Shown in pieces: positions 1,483-48,481 of a DNA stretch of 64,000 nucleotides. The translations under genes and the position numbers were made by a program. The stretch comes from a virus, in the UHGV virus genome UHGV-1440165. The stretch is one strand, 5' to 3'. The notes under the pieces were generated by a model. That model saw only the letters and a program-made list of their open reading frames with translations. It did no database searches and was not told the origin of the DNA. How positions within the stretch are numbered: position 1 is the stretch's first letter; each line of letters begins with the position of its first letter.

Positions 1483-2598
1483 TTATGCGTCCAATTTGTT
1501 CAGGCGTTGTTGGGCAGCATTGTAGAAATGCTCTGCCAGTTTACAGACGTTGTCAGGGCGCTGGATGTTGTTCCCGGCGCGGATATCCTTCTTCAGGACT
1601 TCCACCGCATCGGTCGCCACCATCTCTTCGGTGACCTCAACCTTCTCAGCCGCCACTGTAATCGTCCGGTCTATGAAGTTGTAGTCAATGCACTTGCAGC
1701 GCTTCATTGCATCACAGAACTTTTCATAATGCTTGGCGTTGTCACGGTTCTGTACGATAACCTTAACGATTTGCCCTTCAATACCCAAGCCTGTGTTCAG
1801 CCATTCCGGGTCGATCCAGTTGCCTTCTTCATCGGAGGACAACTTGGTGTAGTCATACTCCACGAACCGGAAGAGCGTCTGGTGCTCGGCGTTCGGGATA
1901 AAGATCTCGCCACCGCGCATGTCGTCTACATAGAAGCCCCGGTTGGTGCCGTCTTTGTAGTCTTCCCAGTTCAGGTGATACGGAGTCCCAATATACTGAA
2001 TGTTACCTTCCATCGAACGGGTATGGAAATGCCCTGTGTCGACCCGGTCAAACTTGGAAAGCAATGCAACGTCGATCTGACCGTGATCACAAGTAGAGGA
2101 CTGGTACATTTTGAACCCTGCCAGCTCCAGATGCGCAAAACAGTACTTGGCGTCTGTATCTTGTATCGCCTTAATAGACGCATCATAGTTCTCCTTGTTG
2201 ATCCACGGTAGGAGCAGGGTCTTAACGCCCTCGATCATTACTTCAGTCGGTTCACTGTAATAGTGATAGACATCTGGGTCGAGTTCGTTCAGGTAGGACG
2301 GCCAGTTGATGCGGTTGGACTCTTCCAGGGTGATGTCATGGTTGCCCACGATGCCATTCCACTTGATACCAGCAGCTTTCAGCGCAGGAGTGAGTTCGTC
2401 CTTCAGCCAGTCTTTGTCGCGCCCGTACATGAATTTGCGGACATCAAAGGTGTCACCAAACTGCCAGATCTCTTTGATGTCAGAGTCAACAAGCTCAGGG
2501 ATGAAGTAATTGATGAGATAGTTCTTTATGAAGTCGCGAACGTAACGGGAACCATTACGGCTCCCGATATGCAGATCGCCGATTTTAGCAATCGCCAT
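1483..2598 (-). CDS. SbcD/Mre11-like metallophosphoesterase nuclease (T4 gp47-like)
   Basis: 371 aa; calcineurin-like phosphoesterase motifs (GDLHIG, GNHD); directly upstream of the SbcC-like gene. Confidence 0.85.
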   Translation of the reverse strand: MAIAKIGDLHIGSRNGSRYVRDFIKNYLINYFIPELVDSDIKEIWQFGDTFDVRKFMYGRDKDWLKDELTPALKAAGIKWNGIVGNHDITLEESNRINWPSYLNELDPDVYHYYSEPTEVMIEGVKTLLLPWINKENYDASIKAIQDTDAKYCFAHLELAGFKMYQSSTCDHGQIDVALLSKFDRVDTGHFHTRSMEGNIQYIGTPYHLNWEDYKDGTNRGFYVDDMRGGEIFIPNAEHQTLFRFVEYDYTKLSSDEEGNWIDPEWLNTGLGIEGQIVKVIVQNRDNAKHYEKFCDAMKRCKCIDYNFIDRTITVAAEKVEVTEEMVATDAVEVLKKDIRAGNNIQRPDNVCKLAEHFYNAAQQRLNKLDA

Positions 2599-3326
2599 TA
2601 TTCTGTTTCTCCTTCGTTTTCGTCCAGATCGAATTGGGTGTTGCCGAAGTCTTGATCTGAATTGTCTTCGGCCTGCGCTGTTACCGTATTCTTACCTTGT
2701 GACATGTATTGAAGTATGCCTTTCGCGATCTTTTTGTTCGATTCGGCGGCTCGGGCGTTCTCTACCTTCTCCCGCTCCTTCTGTCTTTGGGCATCCTTCT
2801 TGTTTTCGAAGTTTCCGATGCGCTCGCGGAAGTCCATGCCAATCCCAGTGGCATCAACAAAGATCTCTTGTTGGAAGTCAGGATCATCGGCCAGGCCTGC
2901 AAATCCACCTGCCTCTTCAAAGGAACGCAGCTTGATGTATGTGTGCTCTTCTTCTATGTTCAGCTTGCGGGCAAATGAGCGGTCAGCGCACATGGTCACC
3001 CAGGAGAAGAAGTTGATCTTGCCTTTGCGCCCGACGTGACCAACATCGAAGGTGTGGAGATAGCGAAGGATGTTGACTACAGCTTCAGACACCATGTCAT
3101 CGCGGTACGGATAATCGCGGTAATTGTAGCGGGTGCTCATCTTGCTGATGATGCGCTGGACCTGGACTGCAACGTAGTTGGGGATCTTGGGGAGCGGTGT
3201 GCCTTCAGTTAATGCCTTCTTGCGAGCGGGGATCCAATCACGAAGGATACTGATGACACGCTCGTTATCTTCGTCCGTAAAATATTTGACGACATTCTCG
3301 CCACGATCAACATAATTCATACCCAT
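2598..3326 (-). CDS. gp55-like late-transcription sigma factor (putative)
   Basis: 242 aa, ATG start; N-terminal half resembles T4 gp55 in pattern and sits next to the gp47/gp46-like genes as in T4; acidic C-terminal tail. Confidence 0.45.
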   Translation of the reverse strand: MGMNYVDRGENVVKYFTDEDNERVISILRDWIPARKKALTEGTPLPKIPNYVAVQVQRIISKMSTRYNYRDYPYRDDMVSEAVVNILRYLHTFDVGHVGRKGKINFFSWVTMCADRSFARKLNIEEEHTYIKLRSFEEAGGFAGLADDPDFQQEIFVDATGIGMDFRERIGNFENKKDAQRQKEREKVENARAAESNKKIAKGILQYMSQGKNTVTAQAEDNSDQDFGNTQFDLDENEGETE

Positions 3327-3337
3327 TGTGGGAACCC

Positions 3338-3865
3338 TCAGATACCGATAAATTCATCAAAAGATCCAACAACCTTCTTCACAGAGATCTTGTCGTTCTC
3401 AATCAGGAAGTTGCTGTCGTTCTTGGCTGCGGTAGCCCATGTGTCCGCGAGTTCATTGCCTTCAACACCCGCATGACCTTTGACCCATTTTAGTTCAACT
3501 TCACAAATTGAACTAACGAGATCATATATTCTGAACAGATCTTTTATGAGTTCAACATTCTTTTCCGGGAACCCCTGATACTCCCACTTGGCTCGCCATT
3601 CGGTGACGCTCTTGATGGTGTATTGACTGTCAGACCAAATTGTTGCCTTTGGTATCCTGCGCTCACCCTTTCCCGAGAATGCCCACAGTAGCTTCAATGC
3701 GTTGGTCACACCCAACAACTCGGCGATGTTGTTGGTGGACGGAGGAGGTAGGTGGCCGAAGAACACCTTCCATTGCATACCCGATATCGGCCTGATGGCA
3801 AAAGCCCACCCTGCAGCCTGATTTGTCCGAGGGTTAGAACCCCCGTCAGAAAAGATTTCAATCAT
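3338..3865 (-). CDS. Ribonuclease H (type 1)
   Basis: RNase H motifs IFSDGGS, TNNIAELLGVTNAL, DSQY, KGHAGVEGNELAD. ORF track extends to 3961 via a non-ATG start; first ATG is at 3865 (MIEIFSDGG...). Confidence 0.8.
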   Translation of the reverse strand: MIEIFSDGGSNPRTNQAAGWAFAIRPISGMQWKVFFGHLPPPSTNNIAELLGVTNALKLLWAFSGKGERRIPKATIWSDSQYTIKSVTEWRAKWEYQGFPEKNVELIKDLFRIYDLVSSICEVELKWVKGHAGVEGNELADTWATAAKNDSNFLIENDKISVKKVVGSFDEFIGI

Positions 3866-43554: not shown

Positions 43555-43634
43555 TTCGATGCTCTCTTAGTGAAATCGATCTATTGTAACTCGCAAGAGA
43601 TCATTGAAATGCCCTCCGGAGAGGGCATGTGTAT

Positions 43635-45530
43635 TTAAGATGCTGCGACGATACCGCCGCCAGTTTCGATCTCGGAGAACTCCATGTCCGGTCGAACGGA
43701 AGCAAAGTCAAGATACACCCAATTTATGCTGTACTCTGGCTTCAACCAGATACCCGCAACCATCTGGTTGGCAGCGATGACGTCGGCGGTGTTGTTGTCA
43801 GCATCACACTTGACTTTACCGTCATAGATCGCACCCATGTTCGCCAGCTGGCGGATGTATGGGCGTACAGCGTTGCTGAACAGGCTGCGAGTGAACTCAT
43901 CGTTGTTCTCACCAAGGTAGTATTTGGCGATGGCAGCGATGTTCTGCTCGGCCATGATGAACAGGCCACGAACGTTGATGCGGTCAAACGCAGATGGACG
44001 AGTCAGGCCAGTCTTGTCGCCGTACAGCACGATGCCTTCGTTGGAGAAGGTAACGATGCTGTTGACCTGATTGCGATAGAGTACAGCACGCTCATCAGAA
44101 GACGCAGACCAGGCCATGCGATTGTAGTTGTTGTATTTGCCACGGTTGTGGAACGCTGGAGACTTGTAGATACCAGCCAGCTCAATGCTGCGTGCCCAAA
44201 CACCTGCCGTACCACCACACGCCGGGATCCAGCGCATCTTGTCGTTGTACTTGTCGTACACATACGCCCAGTTGTCGTCCATGAAGAAGTAGGAGGAGTC
44301 GCGCACCAGGCTTTCGCGCCAGGCAACAACATCATCCATCTCACGCCCACGGTTGCCAACGACATTGTCACGCAGTGGAGATACGAAAGACACGGTGTCT
44401 TTACGCTCGGTAGACAGATCAATCAGCGCCTGTTGCTCGATGAGTTCTTCACAGAAACCGAACACTGGCTTGGCGTCATACGCTTCAGCGTTGTTCAGCG
44501 CCTGGATAGCCGCCACGCGGTTCCCAGTGTAATCGTCCACACCACCTTCGAGTTCAGTAACACCAGCGGCCAGGGTGGTGGCGAAGGTGTACACCCAATT
44601 GGAGGTGTCGTTGATCACATCTTTGAAGTACGCGTTGGAGCCATCGGATTTCTTAGAACCCTGAGTGGTCTGCATCAGTTCATACTTCTCGATGATCGTA
44701 CCGGAAGCGCCGACAGTGGTGATGACAGCGGTAGCAGTCAGACCATTGGCGTCTGGAACAATCGCAGTCACAGCCTGAGGACCGATGGCTTTATGGGTAA
44801 CGATGACGGTGTTGGACTTCACAACAACAGAAGAATACACGTCAGTCAGAGCCGTCAGCGCAGTGCCGATCTTGGTCGCCAGAGTCGCCGGAGTATCAGT
44901 GTCGGTGTACGCCACGTCTTCACCAGCAACAGAGATGGAGCCAGCAGCTGTTGCAGTACCGGAAACAGAGATACGGTCAACCTGACCAACAGCACCAGAA
45001 GAGTCGGTGATGCGACCCACTTTGTCAACGATGACGATGTGGTATTCACCCGGCTGTGGAGCATATGCGAAGTTGTTGCGGAATTCCCAAGTCGGGAACA
45101 GCGCAGCATCACAGATGTTCACAGCGATATCGTTACCCAGGGTGCCAGCATAGCGGCCAGTCCAGGTAATAGACGCAGACGGGGTTGCCGCTTCGAAGTC
45201 CAGCTTGTTGCGGATCAGGATGGCGGTCTGGCCTTTGGTGACGGAGTTACGCGCCGCCGGACCAACCACACGAGTTACCCAAGCCACAGAGCTGTAGGAC
45301 AGGAAGTCAGCAACAACCAGAAAGTCGGTTGCAGTTGCGTCGTTCGGTTTGAAGAATTTCTTCACAAGGCCAGTTTCACCACCAGTAACAAGCACTGGGA
45401 GTTCAGCTTCACCCCATTGGAATTTACCAACGGCTGCACCCTGTACAACAACGGATGGAGACGTCTGAAGCGTGGCATCACGCTCCGTCCACTGTACGGA
45501 CGGCGCGACGCTGAAGCTTTGAGTTGCCAT
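43635..45530 (-). CDS. Tail sheath protein (gp18-like)
   Basis: About 631 aa from ATG at 45530 (MATQSF...) with GAAGGA RBS; immediately downstream of the large terminase gene as in T4. Confidence 0.7.
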   Translation of the reverse strand: MATQSFSVAPSVQWTERDATLQTSPSVVVQGAAVGKFQWGEAELPVLVTGGETGLVKKFFKPNDATATDFLVVADFLSYSSVAWVTRVVGPAARNSVTKGQTAILIRNKLDFEAATPSASITWTGRYAGTLGNDIAVNICDAALFPTWEFRNNFAYAPQPGEYHIVIVDKVGRITDSSGAVGQVDRISVSGTATAAGSISVAGEDVAYTDTDTPATLATKIGTALTALTDVYSSVVVKSNTVIVTHKAIGPQAVTAIVPDANGLTATAVITTVGASGTIIEKYELMQTTQGSKKSDGSNAYFKDVINDTSNWVYTFATTLAAGVTELEGGVDDYTGNRVAAIQALNNAEAYDAKPVFGFCEELIEQQALIDLSTERKDTVSFVSPLRDNVVGNRGREMDDVVAWRESLVRDSSYFFMDDNWAYVYDKYNDKMRWIPACGGTAGVWARSIELAGIYKSPAFHNRGKYNNYNRMAWSASSDERAVLYRNQVNSIVTFSNEGIVLYGDKTGLTRPSAFDRINVRGLFIMAEQNIAAIAKYYLGENNDEFTRSLFSNAVRPYIRQLANMGAIYDGKVKCDADNNTADVIAANQMVAGIWLKPEYSINWVYLDFASVRPDMEFSEIETGGGIVAAS

Positions 45531-45572
45531 AATATTATTCCTTCTCGGTAGAGTTTCGCTCAATTTGAAAGA

Positions 45573-45582: not shown

Positions 45583-47793
45583 TCACCGTCTCAACCATTC
45601 TTCCATAGACATGCCGGAACGTTCGTCATAAACCTGGATTCCACCAAAGCCTGGCACGTTCTCTATGGAGTGTGGATCAGGGGCAGACAGCACTCCCCCG
45701 AATGGCATCATCTGTGATTCTTCCATCGCAGACAAACGTCCCCTCATGTCCACTGAGATGCTTGAGTTGGTGAGATCACTAAACCATTCTTGTTTCACCG
45801 CCCATGCATAGAGCACGAGAGGCATTACACAGTCATCATGACAACCATCGTCGGCTTCATACCTTGTCCCAGTCCATACGAATGTACTGAGTTCATCGAT
45901 TGTGTCCTGATCGTCGATAACCAACATCTCACGTTCGATGAGAGCCTTGAGGTTGGCACAACCATTCGAACGCACTTTCTTGTTGGTGTTGATACCAGGT
46001 TCAGGGCGGCGGCCACCAATTCGTTTACCAGTGCCCTTCGCATCTGTCGTGGTGAAGATGATCTCTGGATATTCAATTTCCTGATATAGAATTGTGATTA
46101 CCTGGCCACCCACGTCGTTGTTGGTTTCAACCAGCATCGGGCACGTGCCATACTTCTCGCCCATATCGGCGATAGTGTATGCATACATCATTGGAGGTAT
46201 CGTGTTGTTTCGATACTTGGCCGCAATCTTGTGAGGATAATCTGTGATGTCCAAGATGGTCAGAACAGAGTAATCCCCCTCCACTCCCTTGCCTGTATCG
46301 GCGATACCCATGTAGATGCGCTTCGGATCGTAATCGTGATAGATCTTGGTGAACTCGTTTGGCTCCTGATAGAGCTTCGAGGTCATCTTGTCTAAACACT
46401 TCGCCGGGATCAATGAGCCGACAGAACCACGGAACTTGATACCGAATTCCTGATCGAAACGTGCATCGCCCAGCTTCGCCCTCTGTTTGGATTCCCAGTT
46501 TGGATCTTTGGTGTACGTTGGAACGCGATACCATGGGACCTCTGTGAGTTTGAAGTCGTTGTACTGAGGATGCTCTGGGTTCGCCTTGGTGACGATGTCG
46601 TAGAACAACCCGCGCTGGCCTTTCGGTGTACTGGTCAGGATACAACGTGAAGTCTCTGCAGATGCAATCGCGGGGAATGTAGACTCCCAGAATTCAAAGT
46701 CGTTTTCAATGAACGCCACTTCGTCCACATATAGGAGCGATACAGATCGACCACGGATGGAGTCGGATGATGTCGCATAGGCGTAGATCTTCGAACCGTT
46801 TTCGAACTCGATAAGCGTGGAGCCGAACTTCTCACAACCCTGTTGGAGGAAGAATGGCAGATCCTGATACGCCTTGCGGATACGGTCCAGGATTTCAATC
46901 GCCTGCTTCTCTTTGTTCGCCAGTACCGCGATCTCTTTGTCGGAGTGGAACATCGCATACCAGAGGAGGAACGCTGCCACGACTGTCGTGTTATGGCTGA
47001 GGAACCCACCTGTGTAATAACGCTGATCACTCGACTTGACTTGCAGGTCGAACATGTGATGCATTTCACCAGTCTGCCAGACCTCGGCCACTTCTTCTAA
47101 ACCATCTTCGGTCTGAAGGTAAGACCCGGCCTCCAGGTCTTTGGCGAACACTTCCTTCATGTTGCTATTGAAGAACATGTGATCGTCGGCAACGTGAATG
47201 CGTCGACCTGTGGTGGTGACAACCACATACTCCTGATACTGCTTCGTCTTGTGCGCTGCAATAACCGGAACCCAGCCTTTGTCGCAACGAACAAAATAAC
47301 GCTTGCCGAAGCGGCTGTCTACGAACTTATCGTGCTTGCCAAAGGCATTCAGTGGCTCAGCGTGATTCGGTCCCTCGAAGCGGCTGTGAAGCTCCTCGAT
47401 GGTGATGCTGAACTCTTCCTGGCTGACAGTGTCATACACAGTGATGTAAGTGTCGCCCTTCACACACTTACCAGACTGACGCGCCTGCACGACTGCATTG
47501 AAGCGGTGATCCTGAAAGTCGTGGAACAATTGCTTCTGATAATCGTGCATATCGAAGAGGATGAAGCCCTTATCGATTGTCGTGATCTTGTAGTAGTTGG
47601 CAGCGAAGTAATGGGCGTCCATCGCACACTCGACGAACTCAGATTCCTGTTCATCAGTCAGCATCAACTCTACACGAGGAGCACGCACAGACGGCTTGCG
47701 CATGAACGTCTGGTCCATACGCAATCTGACGTCTTCGATTTTGAACCCCGTCTTTATCGGGGCGTATTCGATATCACGCTTCTGATACGCCAT
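45583..47793 (-). CDS. Terminase large subunit (gp17-like) interrupted by a mini-intein
   Basis: ATG at 47793 with GAAGGTGA RBS (track start 47802 is GTG). Removing the insert restores the Walker A motif ARQSGK-TT. Confidence 0.8.
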   Translation of the reverse strand: MAYQKRDIEYAPIKTGFKIEDVRLRMDQTFMRKPSVRAPRVELMLTDEQESEFVECAMDAHYFAANYYKITTIDKGFILFDMHDYQKQLFHDFQDHRFNAVVQARQSGKCVKGDTYITVYDTVSQEEFSITIEELHSRFEGPNHAEPLNAFGKHDKFVDSRFGKRYFVRCDKGWVPVIAAHKTKQYQEYVVVTTTGRRIHVADDHMFFNSNMKEVFAKDLEAGSYLQTEDGLEEVAEVWQTGEMHHMFDLQVKSSDQRYYTGGFLSHNTTVVAAFLLWYAMFHSDKEIAVLANKEKQAIEILDRIRKAYQDLPFFLQQGCEKFGSTLIEFENGSKIYAYATSSDSIRGRSVSLLYVDEVAFIENDFEFWESTFPAIASAETSRCILTSTPKGQRGLFYDIVTKANPEHPQYNDFKLTEVPWYRVPTYTKDPNWESKQRAKLGDARFDQEFGIKFRGSVGSLIPAKCLDKMTSKLYQEPNEFTKIYHDYDPKRIYMGIADTGKGVEGDYSVLTILDITDYPHKIAAKYRNNTIPPMMYAYTIADMGEKYGTCPMLVETNNDVGGQVITILYQEIEYPEIIFTTTDAKGTGKRIGGRRPEPGINTNKKVRSNGCANLKALIEREMLVIDDQDTIDELSTFVWTGTRYEADDGCHDDCVMPLVLYAWAVKQEWFSDLTNSSISVDMRGRLSAMEESQMMPFGGVLSAPDPHSIENVPGFGGIQVYDERSGMSMEEWLRR
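46990..47466 (-). mobile_element. Mini-intein inserted in the terminase P-loop
   Basis: 159 aa insert beginning with Cys (GK|CVKGDTYI...) and ending ...GGFLSHN|T (His-Asn then Thr). Confidence 0.65.
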
Positions 47794-48481
47794 TGTCTTC
47801 ACCTTCTTCCTTCGGCTGCGGCTCCGCCTGAACGTCGATTACATCTTCTTCAGGAGCAGGTTCTTTGGCCGCAGATTTCGCAGCAGCACGCTCGTCAGCC
47901 CGTCTTTTAGCATCTTCAATAGTCTTCAGCAGATCACGCGAAGACCTGGCCTGTTTGCCGACGTTGACTGTTGTTGTGCCATCAGGAGATGTCGTGACTT
48001 CAACAGTCGTTTCATCACCAGGAGGCGGCTCTCTGTCCCCTGTGACAGCCTTGATGGTTTTTTGGTTCTCCATCAGGTCTTTGTTCAGGCCGCGCATGAG
48101 TTCACCCAGCTCTTTGAAGACTGTGAACGCGCGGGGCGCTTCTGTCGTCGTCGCGAGTTTGGCCGCCTGTCCCATCATGAACATGGTGGCCTCTTGCATC
48201 GCATAGGTCGTGTCACGGATGCGTTTGTAGTCGGTGGTGGCATCAGTGTCTTCGAAGTCTGGAACTTTAGACTCCTTGGACTTCAACTCTTCCGGGTCCA
48301 GGGATGGCGGGAACACCACAGGCTCGTACCCTGCAGGCTTTTCACCCAGCCACTCACCTGTATCTGGATCGTAATCCACACCAGCCTTTGGAGTTGTTTT
48401 CTCCATGACCTCTTGAGCGACTTCATCCCTTGCATGGATAGCATCAAGAGTGCTCAGCAAACGTTCCGACATGTTACTCAT
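47774..48481 (-). CDS. Putative terminase small subunit (by position)
   Basis: ATG at 48481 with GGAGA RBS; 3-prime end overlaps the terminase large subunit start; charged, low-complexity C-terminus. Confidence 0.4.
   Translation of the reverse strand: MSNMSERLLSTLDAIHARDEVAQEVMEKTTPKAGVDYDPDTGEWLGEKPAGYEPVVFPPSLDPEELKSKESKVPDFEDTDATTDYKRIRDTTYAMQEATMFMMGQAAKLATTTEAPRAFTVFKELGELMRGLNKDLMENQKTIKAVTGDREPPPGDETTVEVTTSPDGTTTVNVGKQARSSRDLLKTIEDAKRRADERAAAKSAAKEPAPEEDVIDVQAEPQPKEEGEDNGVSEA

Follow-up and report, generated by a model that had tools for sequence, protein, structure and literature searches.

A putative mini-intein between the lysine and threonine of the Walker A motif in the large terminase of an Agtrevirus-like phage

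The window analysed here is a stretch of 64,000 nucleotides (nt) from the virus genome UHGV-1440165, and its large terminase gene, terL, was found to be interrupted by 159 in-frame codons without a stop, which very probably encode a mini-intein. In the list of open reading frames (ORFs), the terL frame on the minus strand reaches a GTG at position 47802 (45583..47802, 739 amino acids, aa). The start was placed at an ATG nine bases downstream, at 47793 (MAYQKRD...), following the annotated orthologues of phages SW16-7, Ag3, AV101, Maynard and CBA120. The insert spans residues 113-271 when counted from the GTG, and its boundaries read ...VVQARQSGK / CVKGDTYITVY...GGFLSHN / TTVVAAFLL.... A preliminary description of the window had placed a mini-intein here, beginning with Cys and ending with His-Asn before a Thr, and a scripted translation returned exactly the same coordinates, length and junction residues. 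The positions of the gene, of its parts and of the endonuclease genes of relatives are collected in Table 1.

Table 1. Coordinates of the terL gene of the window, of the putative intein and its sequence blocks, and of free-standing endonuclease genes in relatives
Feature	Position	Strand	Description
terL precursor gene, including the putative intein	45583..47793	-	736 aa + stop, 84.6 kDa; T4 gp17-like large terminase, Terminase_6 family
N-extein part	47467..47793	-	109 aa, ends ...VVQARQSGK; six first Walker A residues; residue -1 is the P-loop Lys
Putative mini-intein	46990..47466	-	159 aa, 18.4 kDa, Cys1-Asn159 = precursor Cys110-Asn268; single Hint domain
Block A	47431..47466	-	intein residues 1-12, CVKGDTYITVYD; Cys1 invariant in 29/29 inserts
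Variable loop	47329..47376	-	intein residues 31-46; lowest model confidence; about 30 aa of length variation among relatives
Block B	47170..47208	-	intein residues 87-99, GRRIHVADDHMFF; Ala93, Asp94 and His96 invariant; Ala in place of the usual TxxH Thr
Block F	47017..47061	-	intein residues 136-150, HHMFDLQVKSSDQRY; Met138 and Asp140 invariant
Block G	46990..47016	-	intein residues 151-159, YTGGFLSHN; Thr152, Leu156, Ser157, His158 and Asn159 invariant
+1 Thr codon (ACG)	46987..46989	-	first C-extein residue; Walker A Thr of GKT; putative trans-esterification nucleophile
C-extein part	45583..46989	-	468 aa + stop; remaining ATPase domain (LLYVDE, TSTP) and RNaseH-like nuclease domain
Free-standing endonuclease genes of relatives	L002 3698-4576; L004 3692-4576; L005 3698-4576		

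Removal of the insert leaves ARQSGK/TTVVAAF, in which the Walker A motif is uninterrupted. TerL without the insert has 577 aa, and residues 29-517 of this spliced product align with T4 gp17 (PDB 3ezk) without a gap across the junction (E=5.5e-72), where ARQSGKTTVVAAF stands against SRQLGKTTVVAIF. The restoration of an ARQSGKTT P-loop, which had been predicted earlier, was thus borne out, with Walker A fully collinear between T4 gp17 and TerL. The spliced product also keeps the other signatures of the ATPase, with RQSGKTT as Walker A, LLYVDE as Walker B and catalytic Glu, and TSTP as the C-motif. The flanks of the insert match the Pfam families Terminase_6N (4e-17) and Terminase_6C (2.9e-6). 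By homology, the host protein is a T4 gp17-like large terminase with an ATPase domain and a C-terminal RNaseH-like nuclease.

All four Hint blocks (A, B, F and G) were found in the insert, and their key residues are invariant among the inserts at this site. The inserts at the RQxGK/T site number 29 and are 150-451 aa long; in 29 of the 29 the first residue is Cys and the last ones are SHN, with Thr following at position +1. A mini-intein alignment of 25 members, 31-82% identical to the window intein, showed Cys1, Ala93-Asp94-x-His96, Met138-x-Asp140, Thr152 and Leu156-Ser157-His158-Asn159 to be invariant. The only other cysteine of the window intein, Cys61, is variable across the inserts. Class 3 inteins lack an N-terminal nucleophile and use a Trp-Cys-Thr triplet in which the nucleophile is a block F cysteine. 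This class was ruled out by the invariant Cys1 and by the absence of Cys from block F of the window intein.

A profile built from the 25 inserts gave ten matches in the PDB and all were inteins, among them gp41-1 (2.2e-11), VidaL (5e-11), Cat (4e-8), CDC21, NrdJ-1, DnaX and GyrA. Furthermore, a hidden Markov model (HMM) made from the same-site inserts of other phages scored 243 bits on the window insert, so that a chance pattern can be dismissed; it matched nothing else when the window was translated in all six frames, and no further Hint copy was seen. The AlphaFold2 model of the insert, calculated with the 25-member alignment, is an all-beta single domain (pLDDT 92, pTM 0.85) in which confidence drops only at residues 31-50. 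When this model was compared with the PDB by Foldseek, the top 50 matches were all inteins or intein-like Hint (BIL) domains with TM scores of 0.57-0.83, and the best match was VidaL (E=5.6e-11, TM 0.75/0.83). Searches of the insert against Pfam, NCBIfam and PHROGs gave no endonuclease family, and no PHROGs family matches the isolated insert. Only 36 residues lie between the end of block B (residue 99) and the start of block F (residue 136), leaving no room for an endonuclease, and the length of 159 aa falls within the range of about 130-200 aa that is usual for mini-inteins. Together with the modelling of the whole 159 aa as one Hint domain, the family searches confirm the earlier remark that no homing-endonuclease domain is evident.

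At E<=1e-10, a search with the precursor gave 774 TerL proteins, and the 120 best were inspected. Five of the 120 (P0015-P0019, 575-581 aa, 74-85% extein identity) are free of the intein and carry the exact ligated junction ARQSGKTTVVAAFLLWYA. These five and dozens of more distant TerL proteins without the insert read ...RQSGK/TTVVAAFLLWYA, which is letter for letter the predicted ligation, and at the DNA level the empty site reads GGTAAG/ACNAC. In a neighbour-joining tree of the exteins, the empty alleles were observed to be nested among alleles with the 159-aa insert. The contigs that carry them preserve the order neck (gp14)-gp15-terS-terL-sheath and are therefore syntenic. Terminases without the insert thus exist among the relatives, nested and syntenic and with the junction as predicted. 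Given these precise empty sites, the insert is not a conserved non-splicing domain of all relatives, the case named in the preliminary description as contrary to its own proposal.

The distribution of the insert was also surveyed. With the insert as query, tblastn gave 307 phage records, nearly all from enterobacterial Ackermannviridae, and diverged inserts were also found in Vibrio phages, Campylobacter phages and two jumbo phages. A 70-aa query over the spliced junction gave 275 records with at least 80% identity; the best 40 were inspected and all of them matched in two pieces over 687 nt (210 + 477), which means that the insert is present. Among cultured phages that are closely related, the intein thus looks fixed. 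Among the relatives examined, the nearest cultured ones free of the intein are Vibrio phages with about 56% identity. A search with the isolated 159-aa insert gave only two matches, the 'intein' mat_peptide entry of Maynard/Marshall and a fragment.

The empty sites, the invariant Hint residues and the intein-only profile and fold matches support the mini-intein proposal of the preliminary description. We consider it highly likely that the insert is a class 1 mini-intein without an endonuclease, situated between the Lys and Thr of the Walker A GK/T in TerL. Several observations weigh against this assignment. The NCBIfam model TIGR01445 (intein_Nterm) scores 24.7 bits on the isolated insert, just above its cut-off of 24.5, and 18.9 bits on the precursor, and the Pfam model PF14890 (Intein_splicing) stays below threshold with 26.5 bits against a gathering score of 35.8. 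At the block B position of the canonical TxxH Thr, an invariant Ala (ADDH) is found throughout the inserts aligned, with His96 likewise invariant. Among close relatives, empty sites were seen only in metagenome or SRA assemblies, and a fixed domain would give the same picture among the cultured phages (about 40 of 275 sampled). A literature search found no splicing experiment on the TerL intein of Kuttervirus, Agtrevirus or Limestonevirus. As the Pfam Intein_splicing and PT-HINT matches are sub-threshold, the assignment to the intein family is based on the custom profile together with the fold and the logic of the junction; the precomputed Pfam tables assign PF14890 to several orthologues. VidaL, a crystallised intein that is active in splicing, also aligns with Ala at the block B Thr position (AFNH), and because of this matching residue the Ala of the window intein is probably a tolerated variant. 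As these phages are viable and cannot do without terL, we infer that splicing occurs and is efficient.

The established class 1 pathway was mapped onto the residues present in the precursor. The 84.6-kDa precursor would be made with its P-loop split by 159 residues and would be inactive as a packaging ATPase. Once the Hint domain has folded, Cys1 (Cys110) would undergo an N-S acyl shift helped by His96 of block B, and the hydroxyl of the +1 Thr (Thr269) would attack the thioester to form a branched intermediate. Asn159 (Asn268) would then cyclise with the help of His158 and of Asp140 in block F, so that the 18.4-kDa intein is released. An O-N shift would finally make the Lys-Thr peptide bond and yield a 66.2-kDa TerL with its ARQSGKTT P-loop intact.

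Other explanations of the insert were weighed against splicing. It seems very improbable that the insert is a non-splicing Hint-type domain (BIL or 'pretoxin HINT') that TerL retains permanently in a structural or autoproteolytic role. Such a domain would agree with the presence of the insert in every close cultured relative sampled, and the orthologue is indeed named 'pretoxin HINT domain protein' in several GenBank records, namely those of Dickeya phages (KM209228, KM209320, KJ716335 and KM209271). The label is erroneous and stems from the presence of the Hint domain. The corresponding Pfam match, PT-HINT, is faint (13.6 bits, E=0.08) and far under the cut-off of 27.7. In addition, invariance is seen at Cys1, at the +1 Thr and at the terminal His-Asn, none of which BIL and PT-HINT domains need, close orthologues lack exactly the insert, and the best sequence and structure matches are all true inteins. 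Going by the structure of the P-loop, a Walker A motif with 159 residues between its Lys and Thr could not bind ATP. BIL and pretoxin-HINT domains are found in variable or secreted proteins and not in conserved catalytic motifs. Hardly credible at all is a decaying or splicing-impaired intein, with functional TerL supplied by internal initiation or by complementing N- and C-terminal cleavage products. The missing endonuclease, with whose loss the decay cycle of inteins usually starts, and the change of the block B Thr to Ala would fit such decay, but the C-extein alone is without the Walker A Lys, the catalytic residues are all invariant across deep divergence and the model shows a complete Hint fold with high confidence. 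The ratio of non-synonymous to synonymous substitution (dN/dS) of the intein also speaks against decay, being 0.05-0.13 in comparison with four relatives. Against pSal-SNUABM-02, no non-synonymous difference was observed (pN 0) at a synonymous divergence (pS) of 0.18. Judged by these values, the insert is under purifying selection.

The same selection, which is strong, bears on the proposal that the intein is a domesticated conditional switch, where splicing and with it the packaging ATPase are delayed until a cue late in infection (redox, DNA or partner binding). This would explain the fixation of an element without an endonuclease of its own in cultured enterobacterial Ackermannviridae. The insert is located in the catalytic loop of a timing-sensitive enzyme and is seemingly fixed in the close cultured relatives (about 40 inspected of the 275 junction records), and conditional splicing of P-loop inteins has been discussed (PMC4760082). 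Purifying selection would be expected anyway, since a defect in splicing kills an essential protein, and the nesting of intein-free alleles within the clade shows that the insert is dispensable. Furthermore, a second conserved Cys able to act as a redox trap is missing, Cys61 being variable. We therefore regard a switch of this kind as improbable.

The terL gene of the window lies in a T4-like gene order, gp15 - terS - terL - tail sheath, and terS overlaps terL by 20 nt (overlap region 47774-47802). Nucleotide identities over the terL region amount to 97.6% for Salmonella phage pSal-SNUABM-02 (Ackermannviridae, Aglimvirinae, Agtrevirus), 95.8% for Yersinia phage CAU_YEP3 and about 90% for both Ag3 and SW16-7. 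The window is, on these identities, from an Ackermannviridae phage that is Agtrevirus-like. As a side observation, a 640-aa ORF at 43629-45551 on the plus strand runs antisense to the entire 642-aa tail-sheath gene (43635-45563, minus strand), and its translation is rich in V, R and G and does not look biological. It is probably a codon-bias artefact of the ORF list and no gene.

The intein of the window is real, but it has already been annotated and published for sister phages. The GenBank record of Salmonella phage Maynard (KF669654) has a coding-sequence note, "intein from Cys110-Asn268", and separate mat_peptide features, and an interruption of the large terminase by an intein is described in the announcements of the Maynard, Marshall and Mooltan genomes (PMC3868846, PMC3853055, PMC6486243). 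The inteins of these Kuttervirus phages are orthologous to that of the window, with the same gene, site (ARQSGK/TT), length of 159 aa and numbering, and likewise no endonuclease. The NCBI nr entry 'intein [Salmonella phage Maynard/Marshall]' is 73% identical to the window intein, whereas the exteins of the Maynard type and the window are about 90% identical. Unlike Maynard's, the window allele belongs to the class of pSal-SNUABM-02 and CAU_YEP3, the members of which are 97-100% identical to each other. The two groups also differ in subfamily, as the window is Aglimvirinae-like and the Maynard group belongs to Cvivirinae.

The Lys/Thr of Walker A has been called a 'classic' P-loop intein site in the case of mycobacteriophage TerL1-a (Kelley et al. 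2016, PMC5050341). Like the window intein, the TerL1-a inteins split the Walker A motif of a phage large terminase after its Lys and before the nucleophilic Thr; the likeness is one of insertion site. Their terminase family is Terminase_1 and that of the window is Terminase_6, T4 gp17-like, and the phages infect different hosts. The mycobacteriophage intein insertion of the Terminase_6 type lies in the C-motif (site f) rather than in the P-loop (PMC5050341), and Terminase_6 is among the common intein hosts (Novikova et al. 2016, PMC4760082). The closest solved structures by both profile and fold are gp41-1 (6qaz), VidaL (6vgv) and Cat (6dsl), which are small class 1 Hint domains ending in ...SHN or ...THN. 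They share only 14-21% identity with the window intein and have other exteins. Natural splitting is characteristic of gp41-1 and VidaL, and Cat is engineered. In contrast to the three, the window intein is contiguous and has an extra variable loop (residues 31-46). More distant inserts in T4-like large terminases were seen in the Ackermannviridae-like Vibrio phages Kuja and BX-1, where they are longer (173-179 aa) and 30-33% identical over their full length, and in the Campylobacter phages CP220 and vB_CcoM-IBB_35, where they are 27-28% identical over the C-terminal 113 aa and are likened to the window intein by Hint sequence and not by insertion site. The CP220 terminase has been annotated with intein signatures (PMC3322345).

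The window contributes a further allele, the gene being labelled only 'terminase large subunit' in the GenBank records closest to this phage, and a further example of the known preference of inteins for the P-loop Lys/Thr in phage terminases. The terL product is best annotated as an intein-containing precursor of 736 aa that gives a 577-aa terminase and an intein of 159 aa. The intein goes unmentioned in most of the group's GenBank records, those of the nearest relatives included. This matters for phylogeny, as TerL is a widely used marker and a fast-evolving, recombining intein left in the alignment distorts trees (97-99% identity in the extein against 75% in the intein). Being compact, contiguous and related to gp41-1 and VidaL, this putative Cys1/Thr+1 intein could also be of minor use in protein engineering. 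The remaining interest, which is modest, lies in the shuffling of alleles and in a possible role of neighbouring or out-of-frame endonucleases.

The intein has no foreign base composition, with a GC content of 51.6% against 50.3% for the extein and a GC content at third codon positions of 64 against 61. The synonymous divergence (dS) of the intein from that of SW16-7 is 1.08, three times the extein value of 0.33. Identities between pairs of phages were also observed to differ between the two parts of the gene. For example, the exteins of the window and of P0003 or AV101 are 97-98% identical but the inteins only 75-76%, and PhaxI and Maynard share 98% in the extein and 79% in the intein. The opposite is true for AV101 and PhaxI/CBA120, whose exteins are 87% identical and whose inteins (2908-3384 in the AV101 sequence L009 and 2501-2977 in the CBA120 sequence L011) are 96% identical in amino acids and 93.5% in nucleotides. 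AV101 thus has an Ag3-type extein (98% identical to that of Ag3, sequence L010), yet an intein of the Kuttervirus CBA120/PhaxI type. The histories of intein and extein disagree in these comparisons, and the identities indicate that intein alleles are shuffled between Ackermannviridae subfamilies by recombination.

The high-identity tract shared by AV101 and CBA120 covers terL nt ~270-720. Its start lies about 60 nt upstream of the N-terminal junction and its end within the intein, with about 85 nt left to the C-terminal junction; past the end of the tract, AV101 is 95-100% identical to Ag3. Because the tract ends inside the intein, the AV101 mosaic looks like the outcome of homologous recombination between two intein-bearing alleles and not of precise homing. 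As the window intein is without its own endonuclease, it probably descends vertically, its alleles being reshuffled by homologous recombination and not by active homing.

Endonuclease genes do occur close to the intein in some relatives. In pSal-SNUABM-02, CAU_YEP3 and LIMEstone1, a free-standing endonuclease gene of about 880 bp (NUMOD3 / F-LimIX, HNH) lies between terS and terL, and this gene is absent from the window and from SW16-7, Ag3, AV101, CBA120 and Maynard. An endonuclease at this position was considered as the driver of the AV101/CBA120 exchange and found to be unsupported, since the shared tract stops short of the terS-terL junction and does not have the form of an endonuclease-anchored co-conversion; in other exchanges such an endonuclease may still have acted.

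A different arrangement was observed in the metagenomic relative P0084 (sequence L012), where the Walker A site is occupied by an intein of 443 aa (1762-3090). Its roughly 290 extra residues are rich in R, S, K, N and Q in the intein frame, and an alternative-frame ORF of 294 aa (1865-2749, plus strand) exactly fills the extra stretch. The insertion point is the counterpart of the variable, low-confidence loop of the window intein (Table 1). The ORF has weak matches to Ros/MucR zinc-finger and restriction-endonuclease-like families and looks like an out-of-frame homing-endonuclease gene placed inside the variable loop of the intein. A structured RNA or intron in the filler was rejected, as Rfam gave nothing credible and the alternative-frame ORF accounts for the filler. 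The relative P0116 shows an arrangement like that of P0084 at the protein level. A homing endonuclease in a separate frame has recently been described within actinobacteriophage inteins (bioRxiv 10.1101/2025.01.02.630785), and the P0084 architecture matches it. It seems rather unlikely, though conceivable, that trans-acting or out-of-frame endonucleases of these kinds still mobilise the mini-intein by collaborative homing, or else that the intein, once fixed, was recruited to time packaging.

Two further types of terL architecture were noticed among the relatives. In P0079 (the 738-aa TerL of Vibrio phage VP-1), P0076, P0052 and P0099, the ATPase domain is followed by a GIY-YIG endonuclease domain in place of the RNaseH-like nuclease, and three of the four have the P-loop intein. 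The arrangement suggests that a GIY-YIG homing-endonuclease gene either interrupts terL or is fused to it in these phages. Besides the P-loop intein, P0050 (838 aa) and P0092 (970 aa) contain about 200-300 extra residues deeper in the ATPase domain, with a SegE-like GIY-YIG match at residues 373-449 of P0092, and these residues may represent a second insertion in terL.

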